44,726 nucleotides of DNA from Candidatus Omnitrophota bacterium (GCA_043718225.1 JAYSWD010000100.1:1-44726); one strand, 5' to 3'; shown: positions 6,698 to 28,766, counted from the first letter of the stretch. Notes: generated from the letters alone by a model not told the origin. Numbers and translations: made by a program.

Positions 6698-7689
6698 AAA
6701 CAGCCTCAATTTTAGATGAAATTTACGCCCCTATAGCGGGCCCTGTTAAAAACGTTCCCGGCCAAATTTTAAAAATTCTCGAATCATCCAATCCGCTGAT
6801 TCAAGATATTTTCCGGCATTTTTTTCAGGCGCAGGGGAAGATGCTGCGCCCTGCGATGACCTTTTTGGGGGCGGCGGTGGCGCGGCCTTCTTTTGAAATA
6901 AATGATAATGAAAAGCTGCTCAATCTCGCCGCGGCATTTGAAATTTTCCATGCCGCGACTTTGATTCACGACGATATCATTGACCGCGCGGAATTGCGGC
7001 GCGGCCTGGTGTCGGTCAATGCTCAATGGGGTTCGCCCGTCGCCGTGTTAGCGGGAGATTTTTTGCATGACCGCGCGCTGGTCACCATTTTTGAAAACAG
7101 TCACTCCGACATCATGCGCCTGTTTTTAAAAACCGCCGGCATTGTCTGTGACGGCGAAATTCACGAACTGCGGCGGGTTAGATTTTATGACTTAACGGAA
7201 GCGGAGTATTTTGAAATCATTTATAAAAAGACCGCCTCACTTCTGGCCTGTGTCTTGGAATCGGGTGCGCGTACTGCCGGCGCTACAGAAAGCGAAGCGC
7301 GGGCACTTGCGGAATTCGGGCGGCATTTTGGAAATGCCTTCCAAATGATCGATGATTGCCTTGATTTTACGGCGAATCAGGTTGAACTTGGAAAAACACT
7401 GGGGACGGATTTAGCCGCGGGTGTTTTGACTTTACCGCTGATTCGTTTGCTTGAAACCCGGCCTGATTTAAGACCGCAAATTTTAAATTTAATCGAGCAC
7501 AGCGCGTCGCGTGAAAATCTCAATCAATTAACCCGGCTGATTTTTGAAAATGGCGCGTTGGATTATGTTTTTCAGCGCGCGCGTGAATCAACCCAGCGCG
7601 CACTTTTGTCATTATCCGTTTTTCCCGATTCTGCTGCCCGTCAAAGCCTTGAAAAACTCGCGGGTTACATTCTTGAACGCACTAAATAG
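6694..7689 (+). CDS. ispB: All-trans polyprenyl diphosphate synthase (IspB-like)
   Basis: First DDxxD motif 'LIHDDIIDRAELRRG' and second 'FQMIDDCLDF'. ATGA overlap with rsmA. Confidence 0.75.
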   Translation: MKTASILDEIYAPIAGPVKNVPGQILKILESSNPLIQDIFRHFFQAQGKMLRPAMTFLGAAVARPSFEINDNEKLLNLAAAFEIFHAATLIHDDIIDRAELRRGLVSVNAQWGSPVAVLAGDFLHDRALVTIFENSHSDIMRLFLKTAGIVCDGEIHELRRVRFYDLTEAEYFEIIYKKTASLLACVLESGARTAGATESEARALAEFGRHFGNAFQMIDDCLDFTANQVELGKTLGTDLAAGVLTLPLIRLLETRPDLRPQILNLIEHSASRENLNQLTRLIFENGALDYVFQRARESTQRALLSLSVFPDSAARQSLEKLAGYILERTK

Positions 7690-7773
7690 TGACAGGTGAC
7701 AAGTGACGAGTGACCGGCAATCAAAAGTTAATGCGGCCATTTTTCTTGTCACCAGTCACCGGTTACCAGTCAC
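7689..7773. repeat. Inverted array of GTGACNN heptamers (4 direct + 4 inverted) between ispB and rsmI
   Basis: GTGACAG GTGACAA GTGACGA GTGACCGG, then a 27-nt spacer, then CTTGTCAC CAGTCAC CGGTTAC CAGTCAC. This makes an imperfect long hairpin. It starts at the ispB stop codon and ends 3 nt before the rsmI ATG. Confidence 0.6.
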
Positions 7774-8526: not shown

Positions 8527-9098
8527 GCCTTAAAAAAATCGTATTTCTAGTATCGGGCGGCGGTACCAACATGGAGAATTTGATTAAACGCATGCGCTTG
8601 GGTGAAATTCCCGCCGAACCGGTTTTGGTCATCTGCAACCGTCCGGAAGCCGGCGCACTGGACCGAGCCGCGCTTTTGAGAGTGCCCGCCTGCGTAATTG
8701 ATCATGAACAATTTTCATCCCGGCATGATTTTGATAAAGAGTTGGCATCGGTCATTGATTCGAGCGGGGCCGATTTAATTTGTTTGGCAGGCTTTATGCG
8801 TCTGCTTACAACCGAATTTGTGAGCCGTTATCCCAAAAAACTGATCAACATTCATCCGTCGTATTTGCCGGCATTTCCGGGCGCGCATGCAATCCGCGAC
8901 GCGTATATCGCCAAAGCAAAAGAAACCGGGGTCACGATTCATTATGTCGATACGGGCGTGGATACCGGGCCTATTATTCTGCAAAAAAAGGTGCCGATTT
9001 ATTTGGGTGAGACGCTGGAAGCAGTTGAAGCGCGCGTGCATGAAACCGAGTATGAAATTTATCCGGAAGCCCTCAAGTTGGTCTTGAAAAACGTTTAA
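8523..9098 (+). CDS. purN: Phosphoribosylglycinamide formyltransferase
   Basis: 'KIVFLVSGGGTNMENLI', 'INIHPSYLPAFPGAHA', 'HYVDTGVDTGPII'. ATGA overlap with rsmI. Confidence 0.85.
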   Translation: MSLKKIVFLVSGGGTNMENLIKRMRLGEIPAEPVLVICNRPEAGALDRAALLRVPACVIDHEQFSSRHDFDKELASVIDSSGADLICLAGFMRLLTTEFVSRYPKKLINIHPSYLPAFPGAHAIRDAYIAKAKETGVTIHYVDTGVDTGPIILQKKVPIYLGETLEAVEARVHETEYEIYPEALKLVLKNV

Positions 9099-9210
9099 CA
9101 GTTTTTCATTCACACTTCGTTTGCATGTCATTCTTATAATTCCACTTGTCATCCCAGCGTAGGCGGGGATCCAGTTCAATATTCTGCTTGGTTCAATCAA
9201 CTCTTTCGAT

Positions 9211-9315
9211 CTGCTCAAACAGCGGATACTTCGTTCCGAACTCGCATTTCAAAAGAATTGATTGAACCCCCTCGCGTAAAGGGGAGGTGAGGCTTAAAAA
9301 GGAGAAACAGGGCTG
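9211..9315 (+). repeat. Intergenic repeated element, copy A (of 3)
   Basis: Aligns with 10625-10728 and 18040-18143. Shared core: gctcaaacagcgGATactTCGtTCcGAACTCGCa ... gGGGAGg.GagGCT ... gGAGAAACAgGG. An 11-bp inverted repeat GGTTCAATCAA/TTGATTGAACC (9190-9200 / 9258-9268) encloses the 5' half. Confidence 0.55.
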
Positions 9316-9476
9316 AGTTTGCGGGGTTGCTCGAAGATGCTTTCATTTTATCTACTTATTTTCTGCCTCGAATCGCATTGCTAGTTTCCTGTTATATGGT
9401 TTTCCGCGATTCCCCGTGAATCGCGGAAAGCCCTGATGATTTTTCTCCGTACCGTTTTCCGTTTCCTTCGACTACA

Positions 9477-9881
9477 ATGCTTCAACCTTTGGCTAAAGAA
9501 AGGGTAGGCATGGATAAAAAACGAAAGCACCAAATAACTACGTGGGTTATTAATCTCTTAACGGTCATTTCTGTTTTCGTGAGTTTCTATTATTTTAAAA
9601 TAGTGGGTTTATTTGCAGTACTTTTAATTAGTTGGACTGTAAGTATATTTGTTGATTTATTAATGGGATTTACGAGATTAAGTTTGGGTTTGCGCGGGCT
9701 TTGGGTGGGGGTGTGGGATATTTCAAGACAAGGTAACCCAAAAAGGTATTGGGCAGTTATGGTTTTCCAAATGTTTGCCCTTGTTGCAGTTGCTGCTATT
9801 GTCTTTAGCATAAACAAACTTTTGAAACCTTTCCTCCAAAAATGTCGATTTTTGATCAACGTTCAGCTGAATAAAGGATAA
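9477..9881 (+). CDS. Hypothetical small membrane protein (3-4 predicted TM helices)
   Basis: Hydrophobic stretches 'LLTVISVFVSFYYFKIVGLFAVLLISWTVSIFVDLL' and 'AVMVFQMFALVAVAAIVF'. No recognisable motif. The start is ambiguous, with an alternative ATG at 9507. Confidence 0.4.
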   Translation: MLQPLAKERVGMDKKRKHQITTWVINLLTVISVFVSFYYFKIVGLFAVLLISWTVSIFVDLLMGFTRLSLGLRGLWVGVWDISRQGNPKRYWAVMVFQMFALVAVAAIVFSINKLLKPFLQKCRFLINVQLNKG

Positions 9882-9884
9882 GCA

Positions 9885-10529
9885 ATGAATACAAAAATAA
9901 TTTTAACTATTATTTCAGGCTTTCTGGTTCTTGGGTTCTTGTCCGGCTGCGCGACGAGTTACGGCCGGCAAAATGATCCGGTGCGCGTTTATTTCAAAAC
10001 CAACGCGCCGCAAGCGACGGTCAATTGCGGAGGCGAGGCCACGGAATTGCCGGGCAATATTTCGCTTAGGCGTGGGTCGAATCACGATTGCTTGGCTCAA
10101 GCCCCCGGCTTTGAGAAGTTAAATTTCCGGGTTTGGTCCAAAATTTCAGGTGAAGGTTTCAAATATTCCACCAAAGTAAATTGGCAGAAGTGGAGTAAAT
10201 GGACATTGGGAATCGGCAATCTCGTTGCCTGGCCGATTGATTTCTTTTCAGGCTCTATGAAAACACTGGAAAATGACCGTTATGATTTAAGGATGCGCTC
10301 TTCCGGTTCGGTTTCGACAAAGGATAAGGTTTTAGATAAGACAGCGAACATCACTAAAAAAATAGTTTCTATTCCCGCGGACGTGGTGGAGGAAACAACC
10401 GGCGCGGTCATGAATGGTGTGATCAAAAAGCCCGCGGAAGCTTTGGGGCTTGCCTCCAGTGAGCAGCGCGAAGAGACCGAAAAAGTGCTTGAGGGCCAAG
10501 CAGCCGCCGAGCATTTATCGGGAAAATAA
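9885..10529 (+). CDS. Hypothetical lipoprotein
   Basis: Signal peptide plus lipobox 'FLVLGFLSGC|ATS'. The rest shows no recognisable family. Confidence 0.5.
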   Translation: MNTKIILTIISGFLVLGFLSGCATSYGRQNDPVRVYFKTNAPQATVNCGGEATELPGNISLRRGSNHDCLAQAPGFEKLNFRVWSKISGEGFKYSTKVNWQKWSKWTLGIGNLVAWPIDFFSGSMKTLENDRYDLRMRSSGSVSTKDKVLDKTANITKKIVSIPADVVEETTGAVMNGVIKKPAEALGLASSEQREETEKVLEGQAAAEHLSGK

Positions 10530-10624
10530 GCTGATAATTTTTCGAAGTACTTGCGTGGTGACTTTTACTTTGTGCTCGATTTAAATCGATCCTTGTGTTG
10601 AGCTCATAAAAAGAATGGGCCCCG

Positions 10625-10728
10625 GCTCAAACAACCAATGCTTCGCTTGGAACTCGCCGGTCCCCACTCTTTTTTTGAGCGATCTTCGCAGTGTGGGGGA
10701 GGAGGGTAGAAGCAGAGAAACAAGGCGG
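10625..10728 (+). repeat. Intergenic repeated element, copy B
   Basis: gGCTCAAACAaCcaATGCTTCGCTtGGAACTCGCc ... GGGGGAGGAGGGTAGAAGCAGAGAAACAAGG. It is enclosed by the 7-bp inverted repeat GCTCAAA/TTTGAGC. Confidence 0.55.
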
Positions 10729-11065
10729 TGAATGAAAAGCGATAGAGAGCCGCAACCCTAATCTTTCCTACAATAGCCTTCAAGGCCTTCACAGTAGTTT
10801 CCCCTTATATCTTGTTTTATCTCAGCCAAGCGGAGATAAAAAAATGAATCGATAAATTCCGATATTTTTATTTAAATCTTTTCTCCTGGTGCGGTTGCAT
10901 TTATGGTCGAAGACCACCGAACCAGGAGAAAAGAATATGATAGGAAGCTAGCTTGCTGAGGTTAAGGCTCGGTGTGGCAAATTTAATGAAGGGCGGCTTC
11001 GATTAATTTAGATTTCTCTACCGTGCTTCTCCTTTCAAAGCCTCTCCACCCCCTTTAGCGCGGAT

Positions 11066-11152
11066 GTCATTAGAAAAGGATCTGAAATGCGAGTTCCGCA
11101 GGAGCGAAGCGACGAGGACTGCCTGAGCAGTTCAGGGGCCTTTTCTAATGAC
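11066..11152. repeat. 87-bp element bounded by a perfect 14-bp inverted repeat (GTCATTAGAAAAGG / CCTTTTCTAATGAC)
   Basis: Read directly. The interior holds TCTGAAATGCGAGTTCC, the reverse complement of the GGAACTCGCATTTCA core of element copy A, and a further CTGAA/TTCAG pairing. It sits in the 720-bp non-coding gap upstream of the peptidase gene. Confidence 0.5.
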
Positions 11153-11250
11153 CGACTCATTGTATGTTTCTAGTATAATAGAAATTACAAATTAACTTCT
11201 TATAGCGCTTATTTTTTTAAAAGACTCGGCACCAAGTTTGAGAGACATTA

Positions 11251-13440
11251 ATGGCTTCGCCGTCTCGTTTTTTTGAAACCCTGGTTTTGATTATTGGAAT
11301 TACGGCGTTAGGCATCGCTGTATGGATCAACATGAATGGAAGACAAATGAATTTTTCTCTTGAGCATGTGTTAAATGAACAACCTCCCGTAGCTGAAAAA
11401 AAAGCGCATGCCGTGAAGGCGCATGGCGAAACGTGGGAAGATCCTTATTTTTGGCTGCGCGAAAAAGAAAATCCCGAAGTAATCGATTATCTTAAGGCCG
11501 AGAATACTTACGCGGAAAAAATTCTCAAACCCACCGAGGATTTTCAGAAAAAAATTTATGCCGAAATGCTCGGGCGCATTAAAGAGGATGATCTGAGCGT
11601 GCCGGTCTATAAAAAAGGTTTTTTTTATTATTCGCGCACTGAAAAGGGCAAGTCCTACGCAATTTATTGCCGGAAAGCCGCGCCTGAGGTGCGCAATAAA
11701 ACACAGCCGGCTTTGGACGTGCCGGAAGAAATTCTGCTGGATGTGAATCAACTTGCCGCCGGTTCGGATGATTTTGCGCTGGGTGTTTTCAGCATCAGCC
11801 CCGATCAGAAACTGCTCGCGTATTCGTGGGATAACACAGGTTCCGAAACTTACACGTTGCAGGTAAAAAATCTGGAAACAGGCGCCCTACTATCCGAAAA
11901 AATTTTAGCCACCGGAACCAGTCTGGTTTGGGCGAATGATAACCGGACCTTTTTTTATAGCACGCTCGACACCATGAAACGGCCTTACAGGCTGTTCCGG
12001 CATTTGCTGGGTGCGGATTCCGCAAAGGATGCTTTGATTTACGAAGAAAAAGACGAGCGTTTTTTTTTAGCGGCGAATAAGAGCAAAGACGAACGCTATT
12101 TATTGATCGAGCTTCACAGTAAAAATACTTCAGAGGAACTTTTTCTTAATGCGAATACGCCGCAGGGAAAATTTGAAATTCTGGCGCCGCGCGAAGAGGG
12201 AATTGAGTATTCCGCCGAACATCAGGACGGAAACTTTCTGATTCTGACAAATTGGCAGGCGGTTAACTTTCGGGTTATGGCCGTGCCCGTCGCCGGCCCC
12301 GGCCGCGCGAATTGGAAAGAATGGTATGCCCACCGGCCCGAAGTGAAACTAGACGGGCTGGATGTATTTAAAAATTACGCGGTTCTTTACGAGCGCTCAA
12401 ACGGCAACACTGATATCCGGATCATTGATCTGAAAAACCGGGATGAAAAGCGCGTTGATTTCGGCGAAACGGTTTATACTTCGGGCGGGGGATCGAATCC
12501 GGAATATGGTTCCGAAATTCTGAGGATTGGATTCGCGTCCCTGCTTACGCCCTCTACTGTCTACGACTACAACATGCGTACGCGCGACCGCGAAGTTAAA
12601 AAGCGGCAGGAAGTTTTGGGTGGCTATGACCCCGCGCAGTATGCCTCGGAACGTGTTTTTGCAACTTCGCATGACGGCGCAAAAATTCCGATTTCTTTGG
12701 TTTACAAAAAGGGACTGAAGCGCGACGGTTCTTCAAAAGCCTGGATTTACGGCTACGGTTCCTACGGCATCAGCATGGACCCCGTTTTTTCTTCAAACCG
12801 TTTAAGCTTGCTTGACCGCGGATTTGTTTTCGCGATCGCGCATATCCGCGGCGGCGGCGATATGGGGCGGCCGTGGTATGACGCCGGCAAACTTAAAAAC
12901 AAAATGAATACCTTTCTTGATTTTATCGCCTGCGCCGAATTTTTAATTCGTGAAAAATATACTTCCGCGGACCGGCTTGTCACATCCGGCGGCAGCGCGG
13001 GCGGTCTTTTGATGGGGGCGGCGGCGAATCTGCGGCCCGATCTTTTCAAAGCCATGATTTTGGACGTACCGTTTGTCGACGCGTTAAACACAATGCTCGA
13101 TGCGTCTTTGCCGTTGACTGTCACCGAATATGACGAATGGGGCAATCCGGAAGAAATGGAATCTTTTAAAACGATACGGGCTTACGCGCCTTATGAAAAT
13201 ATCAAAGCGCAGAATTATCCGAACATGCTTGTAACAGGCGGCTTGAATGATCCGCGCGTGCAATATTGGGAGCCGGCGAAATGGACTGCAAAATTACGCG
13301 CGACAAAAACGGATAAAAATCTGCTCTTAATGATTATTCATATGGGTTCGGGCCATGGCGGCCCGTCTGGACGTTACGCGTATCTCAAAGAGATTGCGCG
13401 TGATTATACTTTTATGTTCGCGATGACAGACGGCCTTTGA
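11251..13440 (+). CDS. S9 family serine peptidase (oligopeptidase B / prolyl oligopeptidase-like), N-terminal membrane anchor
   Basis: Catalytic-triad contexts 'GGSAGGLLMGAAAN' (Ser), 'GGLNDPRV' (Asp) and 'GSGHGGPS' (His). The beta-propeller N-half is about 400 aa. The N-terminus has the TM helix 'LVLIIGITALGIAVWI'. Confidence 0.8.
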   Translation: MASPSRFFETLVLIIGITALGIAVWINMNGRQMNFSLEHVLNEQPPVAEKKAHAVKAHGETWEDPYFWLREKENPEVIDYLKAENTYAEKILKPTEDFQKKIYAEMLGRIKEDDLSVPVYKKGFFYYSRTEKGKSYAIYCRKAAPEVRNKTQPALDVPEEILLDVNQLAAGSDDFALGVFSISPDQKLLAYSWDNTGSETYTLQVKNLETGALLSEKILATGTSLVWANDNRTFFYSTLDTMKRPYRLFRHLLGADSAKDALIYEEKDERFFLAANKSKDERYLLIELHSKNTSEELFLNANTPQGKFEILAPREEGIEYSAEHQDGNFLILTNWQAVNFRVMAVPVAGPGRANWKEWYAHRPEVKLDGLDVFKNYAVLYERSNGNTDIRIIDLKNRDEKRVDFGETVYTSGGGSNPEYGSEILRIGFASLLTPSTVYDYNMRTRDREVKKRQEVLGGYDPAQYASERVFATSHDGAKIPISLVYKKGLKRDGSSKAWIYGYGSYGISMDPVFSSNRLSLLDRGFVFAIAHIRGGGDMGRPWYDAGKLKNKMNTFLDFIACAEFLIREKYTSADRLVTSGGSAGGLLMGAAANLRPDLFKAMILDVPFVDALNTMLDASLPLTVTEYDEWGNPEEMESFKTIRAYAPYENIKAQNYPNMLVTGGLNDPRVQYWEPAKWTAKLRATKTDKNLLLMIIHMGSGHGGPSGRYAYLKEIARDYTFMFAMTDGL

Positions 13441-13564
13441 GATTCAGCTTGGCGCGGGCTAGTTTGCCGTGTTAAATTTGCCCTTCCGAGTTTCGTTTTT
13501 GCATGTGCCGAGCTCATGCAAAGCGAGTTTTCGGGTGAAGGAAAATAAATTTTCAAGGAAGTTT

Positions 13565-13849
13565 ATGGATTTTGACATTAATAAAGTAGCCAAATTGTCG
13601 CGTTTGAAGCTGGCGCCCGAAGAAGGGGCTAAGCTGGCGCAGAATTTAAGCGCGATCCTGGATTATGTGAAAAATCTTGAGAAACTGGACACAAAAAATG
13701 TCGAGCCAACGAGCCATGTCCTTAATCTTGAGAATGTTTACCGTCCCGACGAAGTCAAAAAATCTTTGGCGCGCGACAAAGTTTTAAAACACGCGCCCGC
13801 AAGTGACGGGTTTTTCTTCAAAGTTCCCAAAACCGTCACGAGAGAATAA
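13565..13849 (+). CDS. gatC: Asp/Glu-tRNA(Asn/Gln) amidotransferase subunit C
   Basis: 'MDFDINKVAKLSRLKLAPEEGAKLAQNLSAILDYVKNLEKLDTKNVEPTSHVLNLENVYRPDEV' is a canonical GatC of about 94 aa. The listed ORF from 13469 is an upstream extension, and the real start is the ATG at 13565. Confidence 0.8.
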   Translation: MDFDINKVAKLSRLKLAPEEGAKLAQNLSAILDYVKNLEKLDTKNVEPTSHVLNLENVYRPDEVKKSLARDKVLKHAPASDGFFFKVPKTVTRE

Positions 13850-13887
13850 TGACTGATACGACTGACGACCGACGACTAACGACTAAC
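13850..13887 (+). repeat. Tandem heptamer run (ACGACTG/ACGACCG/ACGACTA/ACGACTA) between gatC and gatA
   Basis: Read directly, immediately after the gatC stop codon. Confidence 0.6.
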
Positions 13888-13896
13888 ATCGAGTTG

Positions 13897-13943
13897 CCCA
13901 ACACTCCCGGTGTTGGGAGCAGTCTCCCATCACCGGGAGTGTT
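13897..13943 (+). promoter_or_regulatory. Perfect 13-bp stem-loop with nested inner hairpin between gatC and gatA
   Basis: AACACTCCCGGTG ... CACCGGGAGTGTT. The loop itself folds as TGGGAG-cagt-CTCCCA. GGTTTTTAC begins 6 nt downstream of the stem. Confidence 0.45.
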
Positions 13944-13970
13944 CCTCAGGTTTTTACGTAAGGCTTCGAT

Positions 13971-15404
13971 ATGACTTCTGCTTTACACAGTCTGACATTC
14001 AAGCAGGCAGTTGAGCATGCGAAAAAAAATGGTGCGGCAGATTTAATCAAAGCCGTTAAAGAACGTGCGCAGAAATTAAATCCCTCGCTCAATGCTTTTT
14101 TGCGTTTGGACCAAACTGTTTCTTCCAACGGGAACGCTTCGGGAGCGTTTGGCGGTGTTCCGGTCGCGGTTAAAGATAATATTTGCGTCGAGGGGCAGGA
14201 GGCGACCTGCGCGTCTAAAATCCTAAAAGGGCATGTCGCACCTTACGATGCGACCGTAATTCAAAAATTAAAAAATTCCGGCGCGTCGATTTTCGGAACC
14301 TGCAATATGGATGAATTCGCATTCGGTTCTTCCTGCGAAACTTCGGCTTTCGGCCCGGCCAAGAATCCCTGGGATATCTCGCGCGTGCCGGGCGGTTCCA
14401 GCGGCGGTTCCGCGGCAGCGGTCGCGGCGGATATGGCTTATGCGGCGCTTGGCAGCGACACGGGCGGTTCCATCCGTCAGCCGGCGGCATTATGCGGTCT
14501 CGTCGGCCTGAAGCCTACTTATGGGCGCATTTCACGCAGCGGATTAATCGCTTTCGGTTCGAGCTTCGATCAAATCGGGCCGATCACAAAAACCGTCGAA
14601 GATTCCGCGATGCTGCTCGGCGCTATGGCGGGGCATGACATGATGGATTCGACTTCGGCGAATGTTTTTGTGCCTGATTACGCCAAAAATTTAAATGCTT
14701 CGATCAAGGGGCTCAAAATCGGATTACCGAAAGAATTTTTCCCGCAAGACGGCGGCGGGATGGACAAGGATGTTGAAAAATCCGTGCGCGAAGCGGTGGA
14801 GCAGCTGAAAAGTCTCGGCGCGGAAATCCGCGAAATGACGCTGCCGCATGTGAAGTATTCGGTGGAAGTTTATTATATTGTCGCGGTCGCGGAAGCGAGT
14901 TCGAATCTTGGACGGTTTGACGGCGTGCGTTTCGGCGCGCGCGCGGCGGCGAAAGATTTGAACGAAGTTTATTTCGCGAGTCGCAGCGAAGGCTTCGGCC
15001 AGGAAGCGAAGCGCCGCATTCTGCTCGGCACATTCGTGCTTTCGGCGGGGTATTACGAAGCTTATTATCTGAAAGGCCAGAAAGTCCGCACACTGATTAG
15101 AAATGACTTTGATCAAGCATTTAGGGAAGTCGATGTGATTTTATCGCCGACTTCGCCGACGCCCGCATTTAAAATCGGCGAGAAGTCGAATGACCCGCTC
15201 GCGATGTATTTATCCGATATTTATACGATTCCAGCGAATTTGGCGGGAATTCCGGCGTTGTCAGTTCCTTGCGGTTTTACGGGCGCGGGACTTCCGATCG
15301 GTTTACAGCTGATGGGCCGCGCGTTTGAAGAAGAAACAATTTTGAGGGTGGCGCATCAGTATGAACAGAAAACACAGTTTTATAAGAAGAAACCAAGTTT
15401 ATGA
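13971..15404 (+). CDS. gatA: Glu-tRNA(Gln)/Asp-tRNA(Asn) amidotransferase subunit A (amidase)
   Basis: Amidase signature '[13 protein letters not shown]...[12 protein letters not shown]', 477 aa. Confidence 0.9.
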
Positions 15405-15422
15405 ACAAAAATCAAAACTGTA

Positions 15423-15450
15423 GCGATCAGCGATCAGCGATCAGCGGACA
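15423..15450 (+). repeat. Tandem heptamer run (AGCGATC x3 + AGCGGAC) between gatA and gatB
   Basis: tagcgatcagcgatcagcgatcagcggacag, read directly. Confidence 0.6.
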
Positions 15451-15495
15451 GAATAATTCCCTGAACGCTGTACGCCGAACGCTGTGCGCTGTTTT

Positions 15496-16938
15496 ATGAA
15501 GTACGAACCCGTCATCGGACTTGAAGTCCACGTTCAGCTGGGCACAAATTCGAAGTTGTTCTGCGCCTGCGCGACAACGTTCGGCTCCGAGCCTAATGCC
15601 AACACCTGCCCGGTATGCCTCGGCATGCCGGGATCTTTACCAGTTTTAAATCAGCAGGCGCTGGAACTCGGGATGAAAGCGGGGCTTGCGCTCGATTGTG
15701 AAATCAACGCGCGGTTAAAATTTGACCGTAAAAATTATTTTTATCCCGACCTTCCGAAAGCGTATCAGATTTCGCAGTTTGATATGCCGATCAATAAGGG
15801 CGGGCATCTTTTAATTGAAACTAAGGGCGCCGACGGAAAATGGATTGAGAAAAAAATCGGCATTACGCGCGCGCATTTGGAAGAAGACGCCGGAAAACTT
15901 TTGCATGAAGGCATTGTGGACGGCACTTTAGTTGACTATAACCGCGGCGGCATTCCTTTGCTCGAAATTGTTTCAGAACCCGATATTCGTTCATCTGAGG
16001 AAGCTTATGCTTGTCTTTCCGCGTTGAAATCGGTTTTGCAATATGCGGGCGTCAGCGACTGTGACATGGAAATGGGCAAGCTGCGTTGCGATGCAAACGT
16101 TTCTGTGAGGCCCGTGGGCCAGGAAAAATTCGGCACGCGCACTGAAACCAAAAATCTGAATTCATTTCGCGCGGTACAAAAGGCGATTGATTATGAAATC
16201 GCGCGCCAGAGCCAAATCCTCGAAGACGGCGGCGTGGTCGAGCAGCAGACGCGTTTATGGAATGAAGCCAAGGGCGAGACCGCGTTGATGCGCTCCAAAG
16301 AAGACGCGCATGATTACCGTTATTTTCCGGAGCCGGATTTAGTGCCGTTTACGATCTCGCGCGATAAAGTCGAAACGATGCGAAAAACTTTGCCCGAACT
16401 TCCTCGCGCGCGCGCGAAGCGTTTTGTGGAAAAGTTGGGGTTGCCGCGCGCCGACGCGCATGTTTTGGTGGAGGACCAGCTTCTCGCCAAGTTTTTTGAA
16501 GCAACTATTGCCGAGGGGGCAAGCGCGAAACTCGCGAGCAATTGGCTGCTTAATGATTTGCTCGGAAGCTTAAACGAAAAAAAAATCAAGATTGAGAACT
16601 CACCGGTTTCGCCCAAATCGCTGGCGGGTTTAATTTCATTAATCGATAACAGCACAATAAATGGAAAAATCGCCAAAGACGTATTGCCTTTAATGCTTGC
16701 CGAAAATAAAACCGCGGATCAAATCGTAAAAGAAAAAGGCCTGGCGCAGGTTCAGGATACGGGGTTGCTTGAAGCCGCAGCGGACAAAATTATTGCCGCG
16801 AATCCGAAGTCAGTTGAAGATTTTAAGTCCGGTAAAAAACAGGCGCTTGGATTTTTGGTCGGACAAATCATGAAGGAAACCGGCGGCAAAGCCAATCCTA
16901 AAATGGTGAACGACCTTCTTGCAAAAAAACTTTCCTGA
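15496..16938 (+). CDS. gatB: Asp/Glu-tRNA amidotransferase subunit B
   Basis: 'KYEPVIGLEVHVQLGTNSKLFC', and 'NWLLNDLLG' in the C-terminal GatB/YqeY domain. The start is probably ATG 15496. The listed ORF begins at 15484. Confidence 0.9.
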   Translation: MKYEPVIGLEVHVQLGTNSKLFCACATTFGSEPNANTCPVCLGMPGSLPVLNQQALELGMKAGLALDCEINARLKFDRKNYFYPDLPKAYQISQFDMPINKGGHLLIETKGADGKWIEKKIGITRAHLEEDAGKLLHEGIVDGTLVDYNRGGIPLLEIVSEPDIRSSEEAYACLSALKSVLQYAGVSDCDMEMGKLRCDANVSVRPVGQEKFGTRTETKNLNSFRAVQKAIDYEIARQSQILEDGGVVEQQTRLWNEAKGETALMRSKEDAHDYRYFPEPDLVPFTISRDKVETMRKTLPELPRARAKRFVEKLGLPRADAHVLVEDQLLAKFFEATIAEGASAKLASNWLLNDLLGSLNEKKIKIENSPVSPKSLAGLISLIDNSTINGKIAKDVLPLMLAENKTADQIVKEKGLAQVQDTGLLEAAADKIIAANPKSVEDFKSGKKQALGFLVGQIMKETGGKANPKMVNDLLAKKLS

Positions 16939-16939
16939 T

Positions 16940-18004
16940 ATGGCTTCCGGCCCGCTTCTCGTTCTCGGTATCGAAACCTCCTGTGACGAGACCTCCGTTG
17001 CGGTATTGCGCGGCAAAGACGAAATACTCTCCAATGTTATTTCCTCCAGTCTTTTTCGCCACAAAGAGTGGGGTGGCGTTGTGCCGGAAATCGCATCGCG
17101 GCATTGCCTTGAGCAAATTGAAATAGTTTTTAATCAGGCGTTGAAAGAAGCAAATATCCGCGTTCAGGACTTAAATCTAATCGCCGTCACCGAAGGTCCG
17201 GGGCTTATCGGCTCGCTTTTCGTCGGTATGGGTTTTGGAAAATCGCTGAGTTACCGGTTGGGCATTCCGCTCGTTGCCGTCAATCATCTTGAAGCTCATT
17301 TTGCGGCGTGTTTTTTGCCCTCGGTTGGTGAGCAGTCCCAGAGAGGGCAAGATGTGATTAGCATTGGTAAGCCCGCGCCTGAAAAATATATCGGCCTGCT
17401 TGTTTCGGGCGGGCATACCTCGCTGACCTATTATGAAAAGGGAAAATATGAACTCTTGGGCGAAACCGAAGATGACGCCGTCGGCGAAGCCTATGACAAA
17501 GCCGCGAAAATTATCGGCCTTGATTATCCGGGTGGACCGCTGCTGGACAAACTCGCGGCGAAAGGCAATCCGCGCGCGATCATGTTCAAAAAACCCAAAC
17601 AGGAAAAGCCGCTTGATTTCAGTTTCAGCGGAATCAAAACAGCGGTCCTTTACGCGGTCAAAGATATGAAAACCGGATTGCGTAAAGCGGATGCGCCTTC
17701 CAATGAAGATTTGGCGGCCAGTTTTCAGTATTCGGTAGTGCGTTGGATTGTGGAAAAGGCTTTTGCCGCATGCGAGCTCAAAGGCGTGAAGCATTTGGTT
17801 GTCGGCGGCGGCGTCAGCGCGAATTCGCATTTGCGCGCGGAATTACTCAGGCACGCATCTGAAAAGGGGATTGAAGTTTCGATTCCGCCGCTTGGATTGA
17901 CCGGCGATAATGCTGCGATGATCGCGAGACGCGGCCTTGAGATTTTTGAGTCAGGCGGACAAGCTAATCTAAGTTTAACTGCTAAACCGAATCTTCGAAT
18001 TTAA
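16940..18004 (+). CDS. tsaD: tRNA N6-adenosine threonylcarbamoyltransferase (Kae1/Gcp family)
   Basis: 'LVLGIETSCDETSVAVL', 'GPGLIGSLFVGMGFGKSL', 'VVGGGVSANSHLR'. The start ATG at 16940 is 1 nt after the gatB stop. There is a roughly 20-aa insert 'GEQSQRGQDVISIGKPAPEKY'. Confidence 0.85.
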   Translation: MASGPLLVLGIETSCDETSVAVLRGKDEILSNVISSSLFRHKEWGGVVPEIASRHCLEQIEIVFNQALKEANIRVQDLNLIAVTEGPGLIGSLFVGMGFGKSLSYRLGIPLVAVNHLEAHFAACFLPSVGEQSQRGQDVISIGKPAPEKYIGLLVSGGHTSLTYYEKGKYELLGETEDDAVGEAYDKAAKIIGLDYPGGPLLDKLAAKGNPRAIMFKKPKQEKPLDFSFSGIKTAVLYAVKDMKTGLRKADAPSNEDLAASFQYSVVRWIVEKAFAACELKGVKHLVVGGGVSANSHLRAELLRHASEKGIEVSIPPLGLTGDNAAMIARRGLEIFESGGQANLSLTAKPNLRI

Positions 18005-18039
18005 ATTAATTGGATTGATCTTTAAAAAACATCCCGAAT

Positions 18040-18143
18040 TGCTCAGACAGCCGATGCTACGCTCGGAACTCGCAAGTCGGGATATTTTTTGAAGATTTTT
18101 TCGCAATGTTGGGGAGAGTAGGCTGAACATGGAGAAACAAAGT
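18040..18143 (+). repeat. Intergenic repeated element, copy C
   Basis: tGCTCAgACAGCcGATgCTaCGCTCGGAACTCGCAAG ... GGGGAGAGTAGGCTGAACATGGAGAAACAAAG. It is enclosed by a 13/14-bp stem AAAAAACATCCCGA / TCGGGATATTTTTT, which also looks like an intrinsic terminator for tsaD. Confidence 0.55.
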
Positions 18144-18190
18144 GCCCTGCCAAATTTCTCGAAAAGCAATCTTATCCGCGTCTCCATTTA

Positions 18191-18258
18191 GGTCTCCAGG
18201 ATTTCACTGAAGTTTCCGTTAATATCTTTTTCTTGCTCTGCTCGCCGAGCAAGAAAAA
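18191..18258 (+). repeat. Roughly 68-nt direct repeat, left copy, flanking the SPFH gene; contains a symmetric hairpin with A/T runs
   Basis: ggtctccaggatttcactgaagtttccgttaatatctttttcttgctctgctcgccgagcaagaaaaaa. The internal structure is TTTTTCTTGCTC-loop-GAGCAAGAAAAAA, which is bidirectional-terminator-like. It is about 85% identical to 19678-19746. Confidence 0.6.
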
Positions 18259-18353
18259 AGGATGAGGGGAAATTTATAATTATTTTAGCAGAATGAAATT
18301 GCTCACAGCTTTCATGCATGCTAAGCTTTCACCGAATTTTAAAAGGAGGCTTC

Positions 18354-19649
18354 ATGCAAGTGGTTTATTTATATCTTATTATTTTTGTTATCGTCCTCAT
18401 TCCGCTATTTTTTTTGCGGCACATTTTGGGCGGTATGCTTGGTCTTTATCGGATTGTCGCGCCCAACGAAGCCCATGTGAGAGTTTTACGCAACACTAAG
18501 GAAATATTTTCTATTCGAAGTGGTAAAACATGCTATTGGTATATTCCCTTCATTACAAAGCTCAATCGTTTACCGCTGAGTAACCTTACCATTCCCGTCG
18601 ACAATGTGAAACTGAACGACAAGAACATGGCGAAGTTTCAATGTGATCTGGTTTGCTTTGTTAATATTCAAAATTTAGAGTTGGCCGCGGAACGGCTAGC
18701 GCTTTCTAACCTTGAAAAAGAAATGGGCTTTGACTTTGTGAAGCTTTCCGAAGACTTTAGGTCGATTATGGAGAGTATCGGCCGAACCGTAGTAACGAAA
18801 CAAACGATTCTTGATATTTATATGAACCGCCATTTGATGAGCGATGCGATTATTAAAGAGGTTGGGAGCGTTTTCCCAAAATGGGGTATTGAACTCGTCA
18901 ATCTTGAACTTAAACATATCAAGGATACCGAGGGAAGCACCATTATTTCTGACATTGAAAGAAAAGTAGCGGCTGAAATCCGGCGCGACGCGGACATCAG
19001 AATTGCTGAAACAACAAAAGAAGCTGAAATTGCCAAGGCGCAGGCTGAAGAAATTTACCGCAAAAGACAAATTGAAAAAGAAAAGGCGATCGGGATTTCA
19101 GAGCAGCAGAAGAATCAAGAAATCGCGATGATGCGCGCGGAAGCGAATGTACGCGAAGTACAGGCTATGCGTGAAATTGAAGTCGGAAAAGCAGAGATTG
19201 AGAAGCAAAAAATTGAAAAGCTGGCGGATGCGGAAAAAAGCAAGTTGACACTCGAGGCCGAAGGGCAGGCCGCGCAGGTGAAAGCGGTCGGACAAGCCGA
19301 AGCCGATATTATTCGAATCAAAAAAGAAGCGGAAGCCGCGGGAACTTTAAAGCTTGCGGAAGCCCTCAAGCAGTTTAACGAAACAGCCTTAAATGTGAAG
19401 ATGCTCGATATTCAAAAAGACATCATGATTGAAAAGTTCAAAGCTCTGGCAATCGTTGCGGGAGAAGCGGATATCCGTTGGATTATGAGCGGCCAGAACG
19501 CGCAAGACTTTTTCGGGTTGAATTTAAATGCCGAGGGAGGCGCAAACCTAAAGCAATTTTTGGATGAGTCAGAAATCCCTTTTGATAAGTTAAAGAGTTT
19601 TATTTCGGCTAATAAGGCAGAATCAGATAAAAAGCAAAGTTTGAAATAA
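18354..19649 (+). CDS. SPFH/band-7 (flotillin-like) membrane protein with long coiled-coil
   Basis: N-terminal TM 'VVYLYLIIFVIVLIPLFF', an SPFH core, and the flotillin-type EA-rich coiled coil 'EAEIAKAQAEEIYRKRQIEKEKA...AEGQAAQVKAVGQAEADIIRIKKEAEAAG'. An AAGGAGG RBS precedes ATG 18354. The listed ORF start at 18318 is probably too early. Confidence 0.75.
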   Translation: MQVVYLYLIIFVIVLIPLFFLRHILGGMLGLYRIVAPNEAHVRVLRNTKEIFSIRSGKTCYWYIPFITKLNRLPLSNLTIPVDNVKLNDKNMAKFQCDLVCFVNIQNLELAAERLALSNLEKEMGFDFVKLSEDFRSIMESIGRTVVTKQTILDIYMNRHLMSDAIIKEVGSVFPKWGIELVNLELKHIKDTEGSTIISDIERKVAAEIRRDADIRIAETTKEAEIAKAQAEEIYRKRQIEKEKAIGISEQQKNQEIAMMRAEANVREVQAMREIEVGKAEIEKQKIEKLADAEKSKLTLEAEGQAAQVKAVGQAEADIIRIKKEAEAAGTLKLAEALKQFNETALNVKMLDIQKDIMIEKFKALAIVAGEADIRWIMSGQNAQDFFGLNLNAEGGANLKQFLDESEIPFDKLKSFISANKAESDKKQSLK

Positions 19650-19677
19650 TTTTCAAAAAACTCTCTTTTCCTTTTCG

Positions 19678-19746
19678 GGTCTCCAGGATTGCAAAGTAGT
19701 TTCCTTTGATACCTTTTTCTTGCTCTGCTGTGCCGAGCAAGAAAAA
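19678..19746 (+). repeat. Roughly 68-nt direct repeat, right copy, downstream of the SPFH gene
   Basis: ggtctccaggattgcaaagtagtttcctttgatacctttttcttgctctgctgtgccgagcaagaaaaa. Confidence 0.6.
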
Positions 19747-20063
19747 TGCATAACGGGAAGCTTCTTATGTTGAGCTTGATGCCGTGGATTTGTATATCAA
19801 ATGATTTGCTTCCTCAGCCGAATATATTTGGCCGCCTTGCTTCTCCTTTTATTGCCTCACCCCACACAGCGAAGCCGTCTTTGGAAGAAGGACTCAATCC
19901 GCGAGTTCTCCGCCATCGGGACGGAGCTGTTTGAGCGGGTGGAGTCCTTCTTTCAAAGACCAACCACTTACAAAGTTACTCATTTTTTAGTCTTTTCTGC
20001 CTTAACCCCGCCCTGGGTTTTTACTTTGACAGTTTCTATAGGCTTCGCTACAATTCGCCCTCT

Positions 20064-20936
20064 ATGCCGACACTTAAATTAGCGCTTCCCAAGGGTTCCC
20101 TCGAAGAATCGACCTTTGCCTTGTTCAAAAAGGCCGGTTTTGAAATTCGCAATAGTTCCCGTTCTTTTACACCTTCGGTGAACGATCCGGAGCTGGAAAT
20201 CATCCTTTTTCGCCCCCAGGAAATGTCCCGTTATATTGAAGACGGTATTGTGGATTGCGGCTTAACCGGCCATGACTGGATTGTCGAAAACAGTTCCAAA
20301 GTGACCGAACTTTGCCAGCTTCAATATTCCAAGCAAACCTCCAATCCGGTACGTTGGGTGCTTGCGGTGCATGAATCATCTAAAGTTCAAAATATTAAGG
20401 ATTTGCAGGGTAAGAAAATCGTGACTGAGCTAGTTAATGTCACCAAAGCTTATTTGAAGAAGAATAAGGTTAAAGCCGAAGTTGAATTTTCCTGGGGCGC
20501 TACCGAAGCTAAGCCGCCGCGGCTTGCTGACGCGATTGTGGAAGCCACTGAAACAGGTTCAAGCCTTAAAGCCAACCGCTTGCGCATCGTGGATACCGTG
20601 ATTGTTTCGATTCCTAAGTTTATTGCGAATAAAGACAGCATCAAAGACAATTGGAAAAGTAAAAAAATGGATCAGCTTGTCATGCTTTTGCAGGGTGCAA
20701 TCCGCGCGCAGGAAAAAGTCGGGCTGAAAATGAATGTCTCTCAAAAGAATTTAAAAGCCGTGATTGCTTTGCTTCCGGCGCTCAGAAAACCAACCGTATC
20801 TTCCTTGGCTGAAGACGGCTGGTTTGATGTCGATACTATTATTGATGAATCGATCGTGCGCAACCTGATTCCCGACCTGAAAATTGCGGGTGCGCATGGA
20901 ATCATCGAATATCCTTTGAACAAAGTAATTCCATAA
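20064..20936 (+). CDS. hisG: ATP phosphoribosyltransferase, long form
   Basis: 'MPTLKLALPKGSLEESTFALFKKAGFEI', and 290 aa with the C-terminal regulatory domain. Confidence 0.85.
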   Translation: MPTLKLALPKGSLEESTFALFKKAGFEIRNSSRSFTPSVNDPELEIILFRPQEMSRYIEDGIVDCGLTGHDWIVENSSKVTELCQLQYSKQTSNPVRWVLAVHESSKVQNIKDLQGKKIVTELVNVTKAYLKKNKVKAEVEFSWGATEAKPPRLADAIVEATETGSSLKANRLRIVDTVIVSIPKFIANKDSIKDNWKSKKMDQLVMLLQGAIRAQEKVGLKMNVSQKNLKAVIALLPALRKPTVSSLAEDGWFDVDTIIDESIVRNLIPDLKIAGAHGIIEYPLNKVIP

Positions 20937-20958: not shown

Positions 20959-21057
20959 ATGCCCTGGGCAAAAAAACAGCGTAAGAAAAAGATGAATAAG
21001 CATAAGCGCAAAAAGAAGCTGCGCAAAAACCGTCACAAGAAAAAAGATTGGTCATAG
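20959..21057 (+). CDS. 32-aa highly basic peptide, bS22-like (ribosomal protein bS22 / AURKAIP1 family)
   Basis: It is not in the ORF track because it is under 60 aa. A GAGGAGAA RBS lies 8 nt upstream. Translation: MPWAKKQRKKKMNKHKRKKKLRKNRHKKKDWS. It matches the bS22 pattern, which I recall as K-[KR]-R-[KR]-x-M-x-K-K-x-x-R-K-L-L-R-x-x-R-x-x-R-[RK]-K. Confidence 0.5.
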   Translation: MPWAKKQRKKKMNKHKRKKKLRKNRHKKKDWS

Positions 21058-22049: not shown

Positions 22050-22123
22050 TGGTTGCCCGACCAGGGTTCGAACCTGGAACCTTGCCTCCAAAGGGCAGTG
22101 TGATACCATTTCACCATCGGGCA
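22050..22123 (-). tRNA. tRNA, tentatively Gln (anticodon UUG); CCA encoded
   Basis: Reverse complement: TGCCCGA-T-GGTGAAATGGTATCACA-CTGCC-CTTTGGA-GGCAA-GGTT-CCAGG-TTCGAAC-CCTGG-TCGGGCA-A-CCA. It has a U1:A72 acceptor, a GG D-loop and a TTCGAA T-loop. The anticodon stem has one C.A mismatch, so Pro(UGG) cannot be fully excluded by hand. Confidence 0.65.
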
Positions 22124-27986: not shown

Positions 27987-28766
27987 CCTCCGTAGCCGCG
28001 TCGGCTCACATCCACGCAGGAGCCGACGCGGCTACGGAGGCCTGTTTTGCAAGTTGGCGTTGATACTCAATGTTTGAGTTAACAAAATAGGCGTAATTCT
28101 TCGGCTCAACGGAAATCCGGTTTTGAAAGCTGCAAATAGGAAGCTCCACGTTAGATTCGATGTATTCATGATAAGACGACCATTTCCATTCTTCCGGTTT
28201 ATCGACTAGATAAGCGGTGACCGGATTTAAATGAATGTAGCGCGTAAGATGTAGGACCTGCTCATCACTTTCACATAAAACTTTCTTGCTACGACCCTGC
28301 CATAATGGTCCTTTTCGATTGTGCAAAAAATTGAAATAGTGGGTATAACTGTTTAAGACATCATTTGAAAACTTTGATACAAACTCTTCTGAGTCAGCTT
28401 CCACGGCAATATGAAAATGAGTTGGCATGAGACAGTAAGCAAGGATGGTGATGGTTCTATTTTTATTGATGGGGAACGCCAGCAACGCGGAGAGGGAATT
28501 CTTTGTGTGTAATTCAAGAAATCGTGAGAAAGACACAAAAGCAGGTTTTGATTGATAAAATTTTAAAAGCATTTGCATTCGTAGGAAATCTTGAGGCCTA
28601 CAAAAAACTTCGTAACCCGCAATGCTCTTGTTGAATAAGTGGTAAACGAGGGGTGGCATGTATTCATTATAATCATAATATAATTATATTTAAATAAATA
28701 TTATGCTCTTTTCCACCGTAACCGCGTCGGCTCCGCTCTACGTGTGAGCCGACGCGGTTACGGTGG
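27987..28766 (-). mobile_element. RAYT/IS200-like unit: Y1 (HUH) transposase gene flanked by two near-identical REP-type hairpins
   Basis: Left hairpin 27987-28040: CCTCCGTAGCCGCGTCGGCTC-12-nt loop-GAGCCGACGCGGCTACGGAGG. Right hairpin 28713-28766: CCACCGTAACCGCGTCGGCTC-12-nt loop-GAGCCGACGCGGTTACGGTGG. The stems match at 19 of 21 positions. The transposase gene lies between them. Confidence 0.7.
28006..28659 (-). CDS. REP-associated tyrosine transposase (Y1 HUH, IS200-like family)
   Basis: HUH motif 'PTHFHIAVEA' and catalytic Tyr context 'RYIHLNPV', 217 aa. The 3' end of the ORF runs into the left hairpin. Confidence 0.75.
   Translation of the reverse strand: MPPLVYHLFNKSIAGYEVFCRPQDFLRMQMLLKFYQSKPAFVSFSRFLELHTKNSLSALLAFPINKNRTITILAYCLMPTHFHIAVEADSEEFVSKFSNDVLNSYTHYFNFLHNRKGPLWQGRSKKVLCESDEQVLHLTRYIHLNPVTAYLVDKPEEWKWSSYHEYIESNVELPICSFQNRISVEPKNYAYFVNSNIEYQRQLAKQASVAASAPAWM

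Follow-up and report, generated by a model that had tools for sequence, protein, structure and literature searches.

A family of modular, structured repeats, interspersed between genes and previously undescribed, is represented by five copies (c1 to c5) on a contig of a Candidatus Omnitrophota bacterium (JAYSWD010000100.1, a stretch of 44,726 nucleotides (nt), hereafter the 44.7-kb window). Among the matches listed, it is restricted to a small clade of Candidatus Omnitrophota. As an interspersed structured extragenic repeat it is set apart by stems that vary from copy to copy, an invariant internal loop and a covarying long-range helix. This descriptive conclusion is firm; the functions considered below are proposals. 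Three of the copies (c1, c2 and c3) lie on the + strand and two (c4 and c5) on the - strand, all between 9.2 and 20 kb of the window (Table 1). Loci of relatives are labelled L001 and so on. GatB homologues place the window among the Omnitrophota, which are uncultured and of whose non-coding sequences almost nothing is known.

Each unit of about 250 nt consists, in order, of a long hairpin (H1), a purine- and G-rich linker, a long-range helix (P3) and a second hairpin (H2). H1 has a copy-specific outer stem of 20-25 bp, a near-invariant internal loop (CTCARRCAR / GAACTCG) and a small variable inner hairpin. The internal loop is asymmetric, with CUCARRCAR on its 5' and GAACUCG on its 3' strand in RNA notation. 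Across the copies H1 encloses a conserved core of 31-38 nt; in c1-c3 this core, GCTCAAACAGC...GAACTCGC, measures 31-33 nt, and folding places it within a stem that is different in every copy. The tail that follows H1 comprises the linker motifs CGCAAAG, GGGGTGGGGGC and GAAGC, predicted by folding to be unpaired, then a GAGAARC box, a variable insert with TCGAA boxes, the motif AGYTTCC-nn-TTATAT and finally H2. P3 is formed by GAGAARC with GYTTC and encloses 3-80 nt, closing over a loop of 3-4 nt in the short forms L112 and L047a.

The structure is well supported, its helices covarying beyond controls. RNAalifold, applied to 24 copies, predicted the outer stem (P1), a closing helix and the inner hairpin (P2), with 17 of 19 pairs compensated. 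The pair closing the H1 internal loop varies between G-C, U-A, A-U and G-U, while the adjacent C-G pair never changes. Pairs were then counted in 28 long arms, from at least four Omnitrophota genomes plus metagenome contigs, at 26 positions of P1, P2 and P3, with 500 shuffles and slid partners as controls. Cells were paired in 88.1% of cases, against 62.4% after shuffling (a value that none of the 500 shuffles reached) and 35-48% with slid partners. Double-change cells numbered 195, against 59 and 34-67, respectively, and the covariation score was 0.662, against 0.192 and at most 0.22. Compensatory double changes occur at 22 of the 26 pairs. The two strands of P3, GAGAA[A/G]C in the tail and AG[U/C]UUCC some 70 nt further 3', also covary. 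At pair 136-219, 17 copies have A-U, nine G-C and two A.C, in a distribution that crosses subfamilies, and a further position is compensated in L033- (GAAAAAC with GUUUUC). When all positions were compared with one another in a naive covariation scan, no clean helices besides P1, P2 and P3 emerged. The covariation is unusually clean, including that of the long-range helix, and the invariant internal loop suggests a specific protein partner. Moreover, between the orthologues c3 and L001+, and between c4 and L001-, the core is kept and the stems have diverged with compensation. Because core and pairing are retained while the stems diverge, selection on individual copies is suggested.

The 17-mer CTTCGCTCGGAACTCGC, allowing up to three mismatches, occurs four times in the window against 0.18 expected; c4 and c5 were found through a relaxed pattern and a stem test. 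With a covariance model trained on 24 members of the family, the five copies obtain 99-122 bits (E 1e-26 to 1e-32), and the next-best match in the window reaches 11.5 bits. The original prediction, made from the window sequence, had described three same-strand copies of an element of about 105 nt (9211-9315, 10625-10728 and 18040-18143). These three (c1-c3) are present and alignable over their full length, but the two copies on the opposite strand (cores 19902-19935 and 11090-11127) had been missed. The unit is also considerably longer than proposed, since conservation runs about 150 nt further 3', through AGYTTCC-nn-TTATAT and the second hairpin. The inverted repeats thought to enclose each copy are real for c1 (Table 1) and c3 (18018-18040/18074-18096); for c2 the proposed GCTCAAA/TTTGAGC makes use of the conserved core, and the actual stem is 10602-10624/10658-10680. 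The central idea of conserved sequence with changing but maintained pairing is borne out by the covariation over 28 copies; the homologues do show compensatory changes, whose absence would have counted against the idea. Compensation in the inner hairpin, which had been overlooked like the tail-to-tail pairing of c2/c5 and c3/c4, is already visible among c1-c3 (CGGA/TCCG, CCAA/TTGG and CCGA/TCGG), where the pair beside the loop also changes (A-T versus G-C). Mechanical open reading frames (ORFs) of 62-147 amino acids cross units on the opposite strand at 8775-9218(-), 10604-10792(-) and 17975-18187(-); they are probably spurious and could be miscalled in automatic annotation.

A gapped-pattern scan of 185,579 species genomes listed mostly chance matches, from which the covariance model sorted the real copies: at least 12 in the metagenome-assembled genome GFS_2494 (GCA_043732705.1), at least five in CAZLTL (SRP300315_co1_21) and at least three in CAZSVD (SRP135725_co2_92). 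Over loci from three other genomes the model counts at least 23 copies. A stricter scan of JGI metagenomes matched seven stretches, six of them real and on six further contigs, which carry 8-9 copies, one of them hairpin-only. Full copies score 54-136 bits, against at most 19 bits for chance pattern matches. Among viral contigs there were 11 pattern matches, none above 16 bits with the covariance model, and a phage origin was rejected on this ground. No copy was found in the syntenic region of the relatives L002-L004, whose GatB proteins are 83-90% identical. The structured RNA envisaged in the original prediction corresponds to no family of Rfam 15: at gathering threshold only the tRNA at 22053-22123 was recovered in the window, and E-value scans of 9100-11260 and 17990-20070 gave only sub-threshold miRNA-precursor hairpins (for example, 35 bits against a gathering threshold of 60). 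Full-text searching of the literature for Omnitrophica or Omnitrophota together with RNA motifs or miniature inverted-repeat transposable elements (MITEs) yielded no record. The covariance model would improve the annotation of these metagenome-assembled genomes, in which copies are currently unannotated or lie under spurious ORFs.

Every copy is intergenic, in either orientation. Copies are dispersed among the housekeeping genes purN, S9 peptidase, gatCAB, tsaD, hisG, nrdAB and sufE, and the neighbours in the window are a purN-like gene and the S9 peptidase, gatCAB, tsaD and hisG genes. Inverted, tail-to-tail pairs with the H1 hairpins outermost occur twice in the window (c2/c5 and c3/c4) and also in L001, L033, L057, L073, L088 and L114. 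At c3 (13 nt past the tsaD stop), L001+, L048, L067 and L073+, a distance of 10-16 nt separates the stop codon of a co-directional gene from the start of H1. The short form L112 occupies nearly the whole gap between co-directional genes in apparent operons, and where genes converge (L057, L088) there is one H1 per gene.

The explanation that we favour, tentatively and with a little less than an even chance, is that the units form a REP/BOX/Correia-like structured module, co-transcribed with its neighbours and selectively kept as a protein-recognised RNA punctuation element. Co-transcription is suggested by the start of H1 shortly after stop codons and by gap filling of the L112 type. The units would then serve as generic punctuation of gene boundaries at the RNA level. 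A putative host protein that sets the stability, processing or insulation of mRNA 3' ends would bind or cleave at the invariant internal loop of H1, and the following cistron would have its 5' side structured by P3 and H2. The family may spread by duplication and recombination; the units would constitute portable homology and would therefore promote insertion and loss of neighbouring genes. If this holds at the RNA level, the units would represent a generic operon-punctuation signal for the whole clade and a handle on a new RNA-binding or RNA-cleaving protein.

Several points weigh against the punctuation proposal. Transcription of the units and its direction are inferred from sequence, and the protein partner of the H1 loop is putative. 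About one third of the copies (c4, c5, L028, L047b, L063, L079 and others) face the 5' end of a gene, c4 having its hairpin end towards the hisG promoter and c5 towards the S9 peptidase gene; a 3'-end role gives no account of such copies. H1 lacks a consistent U-tract, a T-run following it in some copies only, and it is not a canonical intrinsic terminator. A scan of 8900-19900 for intrinsic terminators and sigma-70 promoters found no sites at the element, with counts at or below shuffle expectation. The wobble asymmetry of H1 favours the strand opposite to the one proposed to be co-transcribed. Finally, templated (quasipalindrome) repair in DNA palindromes can yield compensatory changes without selection on RNA, although it explains the conserved loop and the covariation of P3 over a range of 70 nt less well.

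Close relatives do not all carry the same units, and the units are found at sites of gain or loss of accessory genes. The closest relative, L001 (GatB 95% identical), shares c3 and c4 with the window in the tsaD-hisG spacer. The SPFH/Band 7 gene that lies between these arms in the window, whose protein had no match in an exact look-up, is missing from the equivalent L001 site. It is bracketed by a direct duplication of about 95 nt of the central block, and L001 has a single copy of this repeat and no SPFH gene. Likewise, c1 and the gene for a predicted membrane protein of 134 amino acids are missing between purN and a gene of 214 amino acids in L001, L002 and L003, from which the c2/c5 pair is also missing. 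The sequence of the c1 H1 stem and the REP-like palindrome on its 5' side recur in the nrdB-downstream copies L015 and L113, from two other genomes, and c1 is therefore regarded as a paralogue established at a new locus. A T5orf172/MUG113 gene in L114 is bracketed by a hairpin-only copy and a full copy. This hairpin-only copy (3090-3200, H1 without a tail) starts about 25 nt past an apparent tRNA 3' end (GGGAGTTCGATCCTCCCCCCCGTCA), which suggests that it marks the boundary of an island adjacent to a putative tRNA.

A rival explanation, in line with the mobile mini-element named in the original prediction, is a non-autonomous mobile DNA element. A tail-to-tail pair (left arm, centre and right arm) of 450-650 bp, in some cases with cargo, would be complete, and single arms would be what is left of such pairs. 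Folding of the hairpins would take place in single-stranded DNA, and a recombinase or transposase encoded elsewhere in the genome would read the invariant H1 loop, by comparison with REPIN/RAYT, IS200/IS605 ends and integron attC sites. We consider this somewhat unlikely. It agrees with a multi-copy family confined to a narrow clade and missing from relatives of 83-90% GatB identity, with the presence differences between the window and L001-L003, and with the paralogy of c1 to the copy downstream of nrdB at another locus. The two arms of a pair belong to different subtypes with H1 outermost, like left and right ends, and cargo lies between arms in the window (SPFH) and beside an apparent tRNA 3' end in L114 (T5orf172/MUG113). 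The wobble pairs of H1 are strand-asymmetric regardless of gene orientation, as strand-specific folding of single-stranded DNA predicts. Inner hairpins of subtype A, moreover, have GCGNAGC at their tip when read on the reverse strand, and this motif forms a very stable mini-hairpin in DNA. However, the outermost sequences, the H1 stems, are the least conserved, which leaves the units without conserved termini. The boundaries of c1 and of c2/c5 show no target-site duplication; at about 78% gene identity, the closest empty sites are too distant to fix exact ends. No transposase or integrase was found among the neighbours scanned of about 35 copies, and the single recombinase gene nearby lies in L063 and is assigned as XerD-like from N-terminal sequence only. 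Paired arms would need to fold on opposite strands, and the inner hairpin favours the other strand. The retention of cores and pairing in orthologues since the species split suggests a host function or very long persistence.

In another proposal, the units would be three-helix single-stranded DNA recombination sites of an undescribed gene-cassette system, their H1 loop read by a putative recombinase. Between the arms or next to them, accessory genes (SPFH, toxin-antitoxin, DUF4062, T5orf172, small membrane proteins) would be gained by insertion and lost by excision. The parallel with integron attC sites or pdif modules would be one of function, the structure being unrelated, and this possibility is rated as quite unlikely. 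As a second such possibility, the conserved H1 loop and linker may be a new self-cleaving ribozyme or processing site. If the units do act at the DNA level, they would be a new kind of structured recombination or transposition site.

Of 28 copies, 24 form a more stable whole H1 on the reverse strand (mean difference 4.6 kcal/mol; Wilcoxon p = 3e-5; G.U pairs 54 versus 21). This holds mostly regardless of the orientation of the neighbouring gene (six of the nine divergent copies in the first 24). For the inner hairpin taken by itself, the forward strand, that of the original prediction, gives the more stable fold in 26 of 28 copies (p = 2e-5), and in subtype B this hairpin has a conserved U.G on the forward strand. 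H2 shows no strand bias. Assignment of a strand by folding energy was abandoned since these signals conflict. The opposite signals of H1 and the inner hairpin could mean that both strands matter, through transcription of both or cruciform DNA; alternatively, A.C mismatches could be tolerated or selected, or the element could work as DNA.

The bias of H1 would fit an arm that is a small-RNA gene on the opposite strand, read from the H2/TATAAC side toward H1, in a multi-copy family directed against the Shine-Dalgarno sequence and comparable to LhrC, RsaE/RoxS and CcsR. Such C-rich families with several copies per genome are known. The transcript would have a 5' P3 domain, a single-stranded C/U-rich stretch GCCCCCACCCCA (UCACCUCC in c1 and CCUCCUCCCCC in c2) able to pair with Shine-Dalgarno sequences, and H1 at its 3' end, and paired units would be divergent small-RNA genes. 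Both P3 exceptions, A.C on the forward strand, become G.U on the reverse strand, and the linker is predicted to be unpaired. This reading is nevertheless unlikely. Inspection by eye of the sequence upstream of the arms in that direction showed no convincing -35/-10 pair, nor did the consensus scan place a promoter there in the window region; H1 is likewise not followed by a U-tract on the reverse strand. In length and sequence the C-rich stretch differs from copy to copy, and it is missing in L033-, unlike a seed; the RNA would be antisense to the operon at most loci, and the inner hairpin with its conserved U.G favours the other strand.

The original prediction had seen in the element a promoter or regulator-binding module, or a cis-regulatory leader, shared by three downstream + strand genes. 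A few observations lean this way: AGTTTCC-nn-TTATAT and the hairpin lie 60-90 nt upstream of the start codons of the 134-amino-acid and SPFH genes, one subtype has a TCGAAY box about 17 nt upstream of TTATAT, and the region upstream of the S9 peptidase gene has a similar GTTTC-tag-TATAAT. However, GYTTC covaries with GAGAARC about 70 nt upstream, so that the -10-like motif AGTTTCC..TTATAT coincides at least in part with a strand of a helix. The second subtype has no -35-like box, and the sigma-70 consensus scan has no site at the element; neither inspection by eye nor the consensus scan gave a convincing promoter in either direction. Units occur in both orientations, as gene-less pairs and facing gene 3' ends, their H1 often lying shortly after upstream stop codons, and two window copies point away from the adjoining gene. 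The downstream genes (SufE, YebC, DJ-1, SDR, Doc, MazF-like, DUF4062, T5orf172 and small membrane proteins) are without common function, so the unit is not a gene-specific leader. A shared module of this kind is thus very improbable, and a riboswitch was rejected on the same variation in orientation and neighbours and the unrelated downstream genes.

Other candidates were also discarded. A K-turn in the H1 internal loop does not agree with a 3' strand that, by eye, has no GA beside the outer stem. A small ORF in the tail was dismissed by eye, as start codons after AGGAG are not conserved (five codons in c2, 20 in c3, none in c1). Insertion of the core into pre-existing terminator loops is at odds with a conserved tail that sits outside the stem.

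The closest analogues of the element are BOX/ERIC, REP/BIME/REPIN, Correia-type MITEs and, in function, attC sites, whose defining features it lacks where these were tested. BOX elements of Streptococcus pneumoniae and ERIC/IRU elements of enterobacteria are intergenic, modular and co-transcribed, form stem-loops, occur in either orientation, reach copy numbers of tens to hundreds in a genome and encode no transposase. The units are likewise interspersed, intergenic, non-coding and modular, with boxes present or absent, and have predicted stable stem-loops in either orientation. Copies of BOX/ERIC share stem sequence, whereas the stems of the units are copy-specific, only the internal loop, linker boxes and P3 being conserved, and are compensated even between orthologues; there is no sequence similarity, and the phylum is another. 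REP, BIME and REPIN sequences resemble the units as extragenic palindromes often located just past stop codons, as inverted doublets and singlets, and in their proposed roles in mRNA 3'-end stability and as recombination substrates. However, REPs measure 20-40 nt, are sequence-conserved within a genome and have a 5' GTAG, while the units are about 250 nt long with three helices, a conserved internal loop and variable stems. No RAYT gene was seen in the 8-kb genome pieces covered.

The units share with Correia elements of Neisseria (CREE) and other MITEs a small size, non-coding sequence, inverted-repeat architecture, multiple copies and presence/absence polymorphism between strains or relatives. 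Such elements are embedded in transcripts, their hairpin can be processed and they may affect expression of neighbours. MITEs, however, have conserved terminal inverted repeats and target-site duplications, whereas the termini of the units are their most variable part, even between c3 and L001+, and paired arms are related only at the family level. With attC sites they have in common structure conserved over sequence, an apparent one-strand folding bias, the possibility of isolated sites and adjacency to variable accessory genes (toxin-antitoxin, small unknown proteins). In attC, R and L boxes (RYYYAAC...GTTRRRY) stand at the base of a single hairpin of 57-141 nt with a variable tip, whereas the units have three helices, and the base of H1 is most variable and its invariant loop lies near the tip. 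Identity with attC was rejected, since R''/R' boxes are missing at the H1 base, there are no cassette arrays and no intI occurs among the neighbours scanned. Lastly, the multi-copy RNA motifs of Weinberg type (Rfam candidates) similarly have covarying helices, invariant loop nucleotides and a narrow phylogenetic range, but most keep their orientation relative to a gene class, which the units do not, and none in Rfam 15 matches.

Table 1. Positions in the window of the repeat units, their parts and associated features
Feature	Position	Strand	Remarks
Unit c1	9186..9432	+	covariance model, 121.5 bits
c1 H1	9190-9268	+	outer stem 9190-9212 / 9246-9268; core 9213-9245
c1 G-rich linker	9269-9300	+	
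c1 P3, 5' strand	9302-9308	+	GAGAAAC
c1 P3, 3' strand	9383-9389	+	AGTTTCC
c1 TGTTATAT	9390-9397	+	
c1 H2	9398-9432	+	
Unit c2	10598..10843	+	116.8 bits; left arm of the c2/c5 tail-to-tail pair
c2 H1	10602-10680	+	core 10625-10657
c2 GAGAAAC	10715-10721	+	
c2 AGTTTCC	10796-10802	+	
c2 H2	10815-10843	+	
Unit c5	10872..11155	-	99.1 bits; right arm of the c2/c5 pair
c5 H1	11066-11153	-	core ~11089-11128
c5 GAGAAGC	11025-11031	-	
c5 AGCTTCC	10943-10949	-	
c5 H2	10872-10940	-	
Unit c3	18014..18261	+	117.3 bits; orthologue in L001 at 12615-12767
c3 H1	18018-18096	+	core 18041-18073
c3 GAGAAAC	18132-18138	+	
c3 AGTTTCC	18211-18217	+	
c3 H2	18226-18261	+	
Unit c4	19713..19963	-	118.9 bits; orthologue in L001 at 12917-13072
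c4 H1	19877-19962	-	core ~19901-19936
c4 GAGAAGC	19839-19845	-	
c4 AGCTTCC	19756-19762	-	
c4 H2	19713-19746	-	
REP-like short palindrome TGTCATCCCAGCGTAGGCGGGGATCCAG	9150..9172	+	directly 5' of c1 H1
134-amino-acid predicted membrane protein gene	9477..9881	+	follows c1
Direct repeat of ~95 nt, left copy	18191..18285	+	GGTCTCCAGGATT through AGTTTCC, H2 to mirrored block
SPFH/Band 7 gene	18318..19649	+	between arms c3 and c4; missing from equivalent L001 site
Direct repeat, right copy	19679..19775	+	AGTTTCC at 19698-19704

The REP-like palindrome next to c1 also flanks related copies in L015, L041, L047, L113 and L115. It belongs to a family of short REP-like palindromes, TGTCATTCCCGCGnAGGCGGGAATCCAG, distinct from the units, which recurs in these Omnitrophota genomes: at 9150-9172 in the window and in L015 (803-820 and 1860-1877), L041 (7828-7845), L047 (632-649), L057 (7277-7336), L113 (6029-6046) and L115 (1350-1367), often directly 5' of H1. 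Its sequence resembles the Neisseria dRS3 repeat, ATTCCC-N8-GGGAAT. One H2 subtype (window 9398-9432; L115, L047, L020 and L071) is a recurrent palindrome, TTTCCGCGATTCCnCGnGAATCGCGGAAA, common to several genomes; the other (TTTTTC...GCWAAGC...GAAAAA) is not shared between genomes in that manner.

Further features of the window stand apart from the repeat family. The tRNA gene at 22053-22123 (-; Rfam 60.6 bits) is 100% identical to L001 over 72 nt, the flanking genes showing 72-85% identity. A lysine- and arginine-rich ORF of 32 amino acids, MPWAKKQRKKKMNKHKRKKKLRKNRHKKKDWS, lies at 20959-21057 (+) between hisG and the next gene; L001 has a 32-amino-acid gene in the equivalent place, and the product may be a small basic protein of ribosomal type. 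Several operon spacers contain heptamer tandem repeats resembling the short tandemly repeated heptamers of cyanobacteria: AGTGACA (about four copies) followed by the inverted form GTCACCA at 7688-7714 and 7748-7773, ACGACTA (about four copies) at 13858-13887 and AGCGATC (about 3.6 copies) at 15422-15446. A single ORF of 4,683 amino acids occupies 28958-43009 (+) and is preceded by an AT-rich spacer of 300 bp (GC 0.38) that holds a perfect, GC-rich palindrome of 50 nt at 28714-28765.

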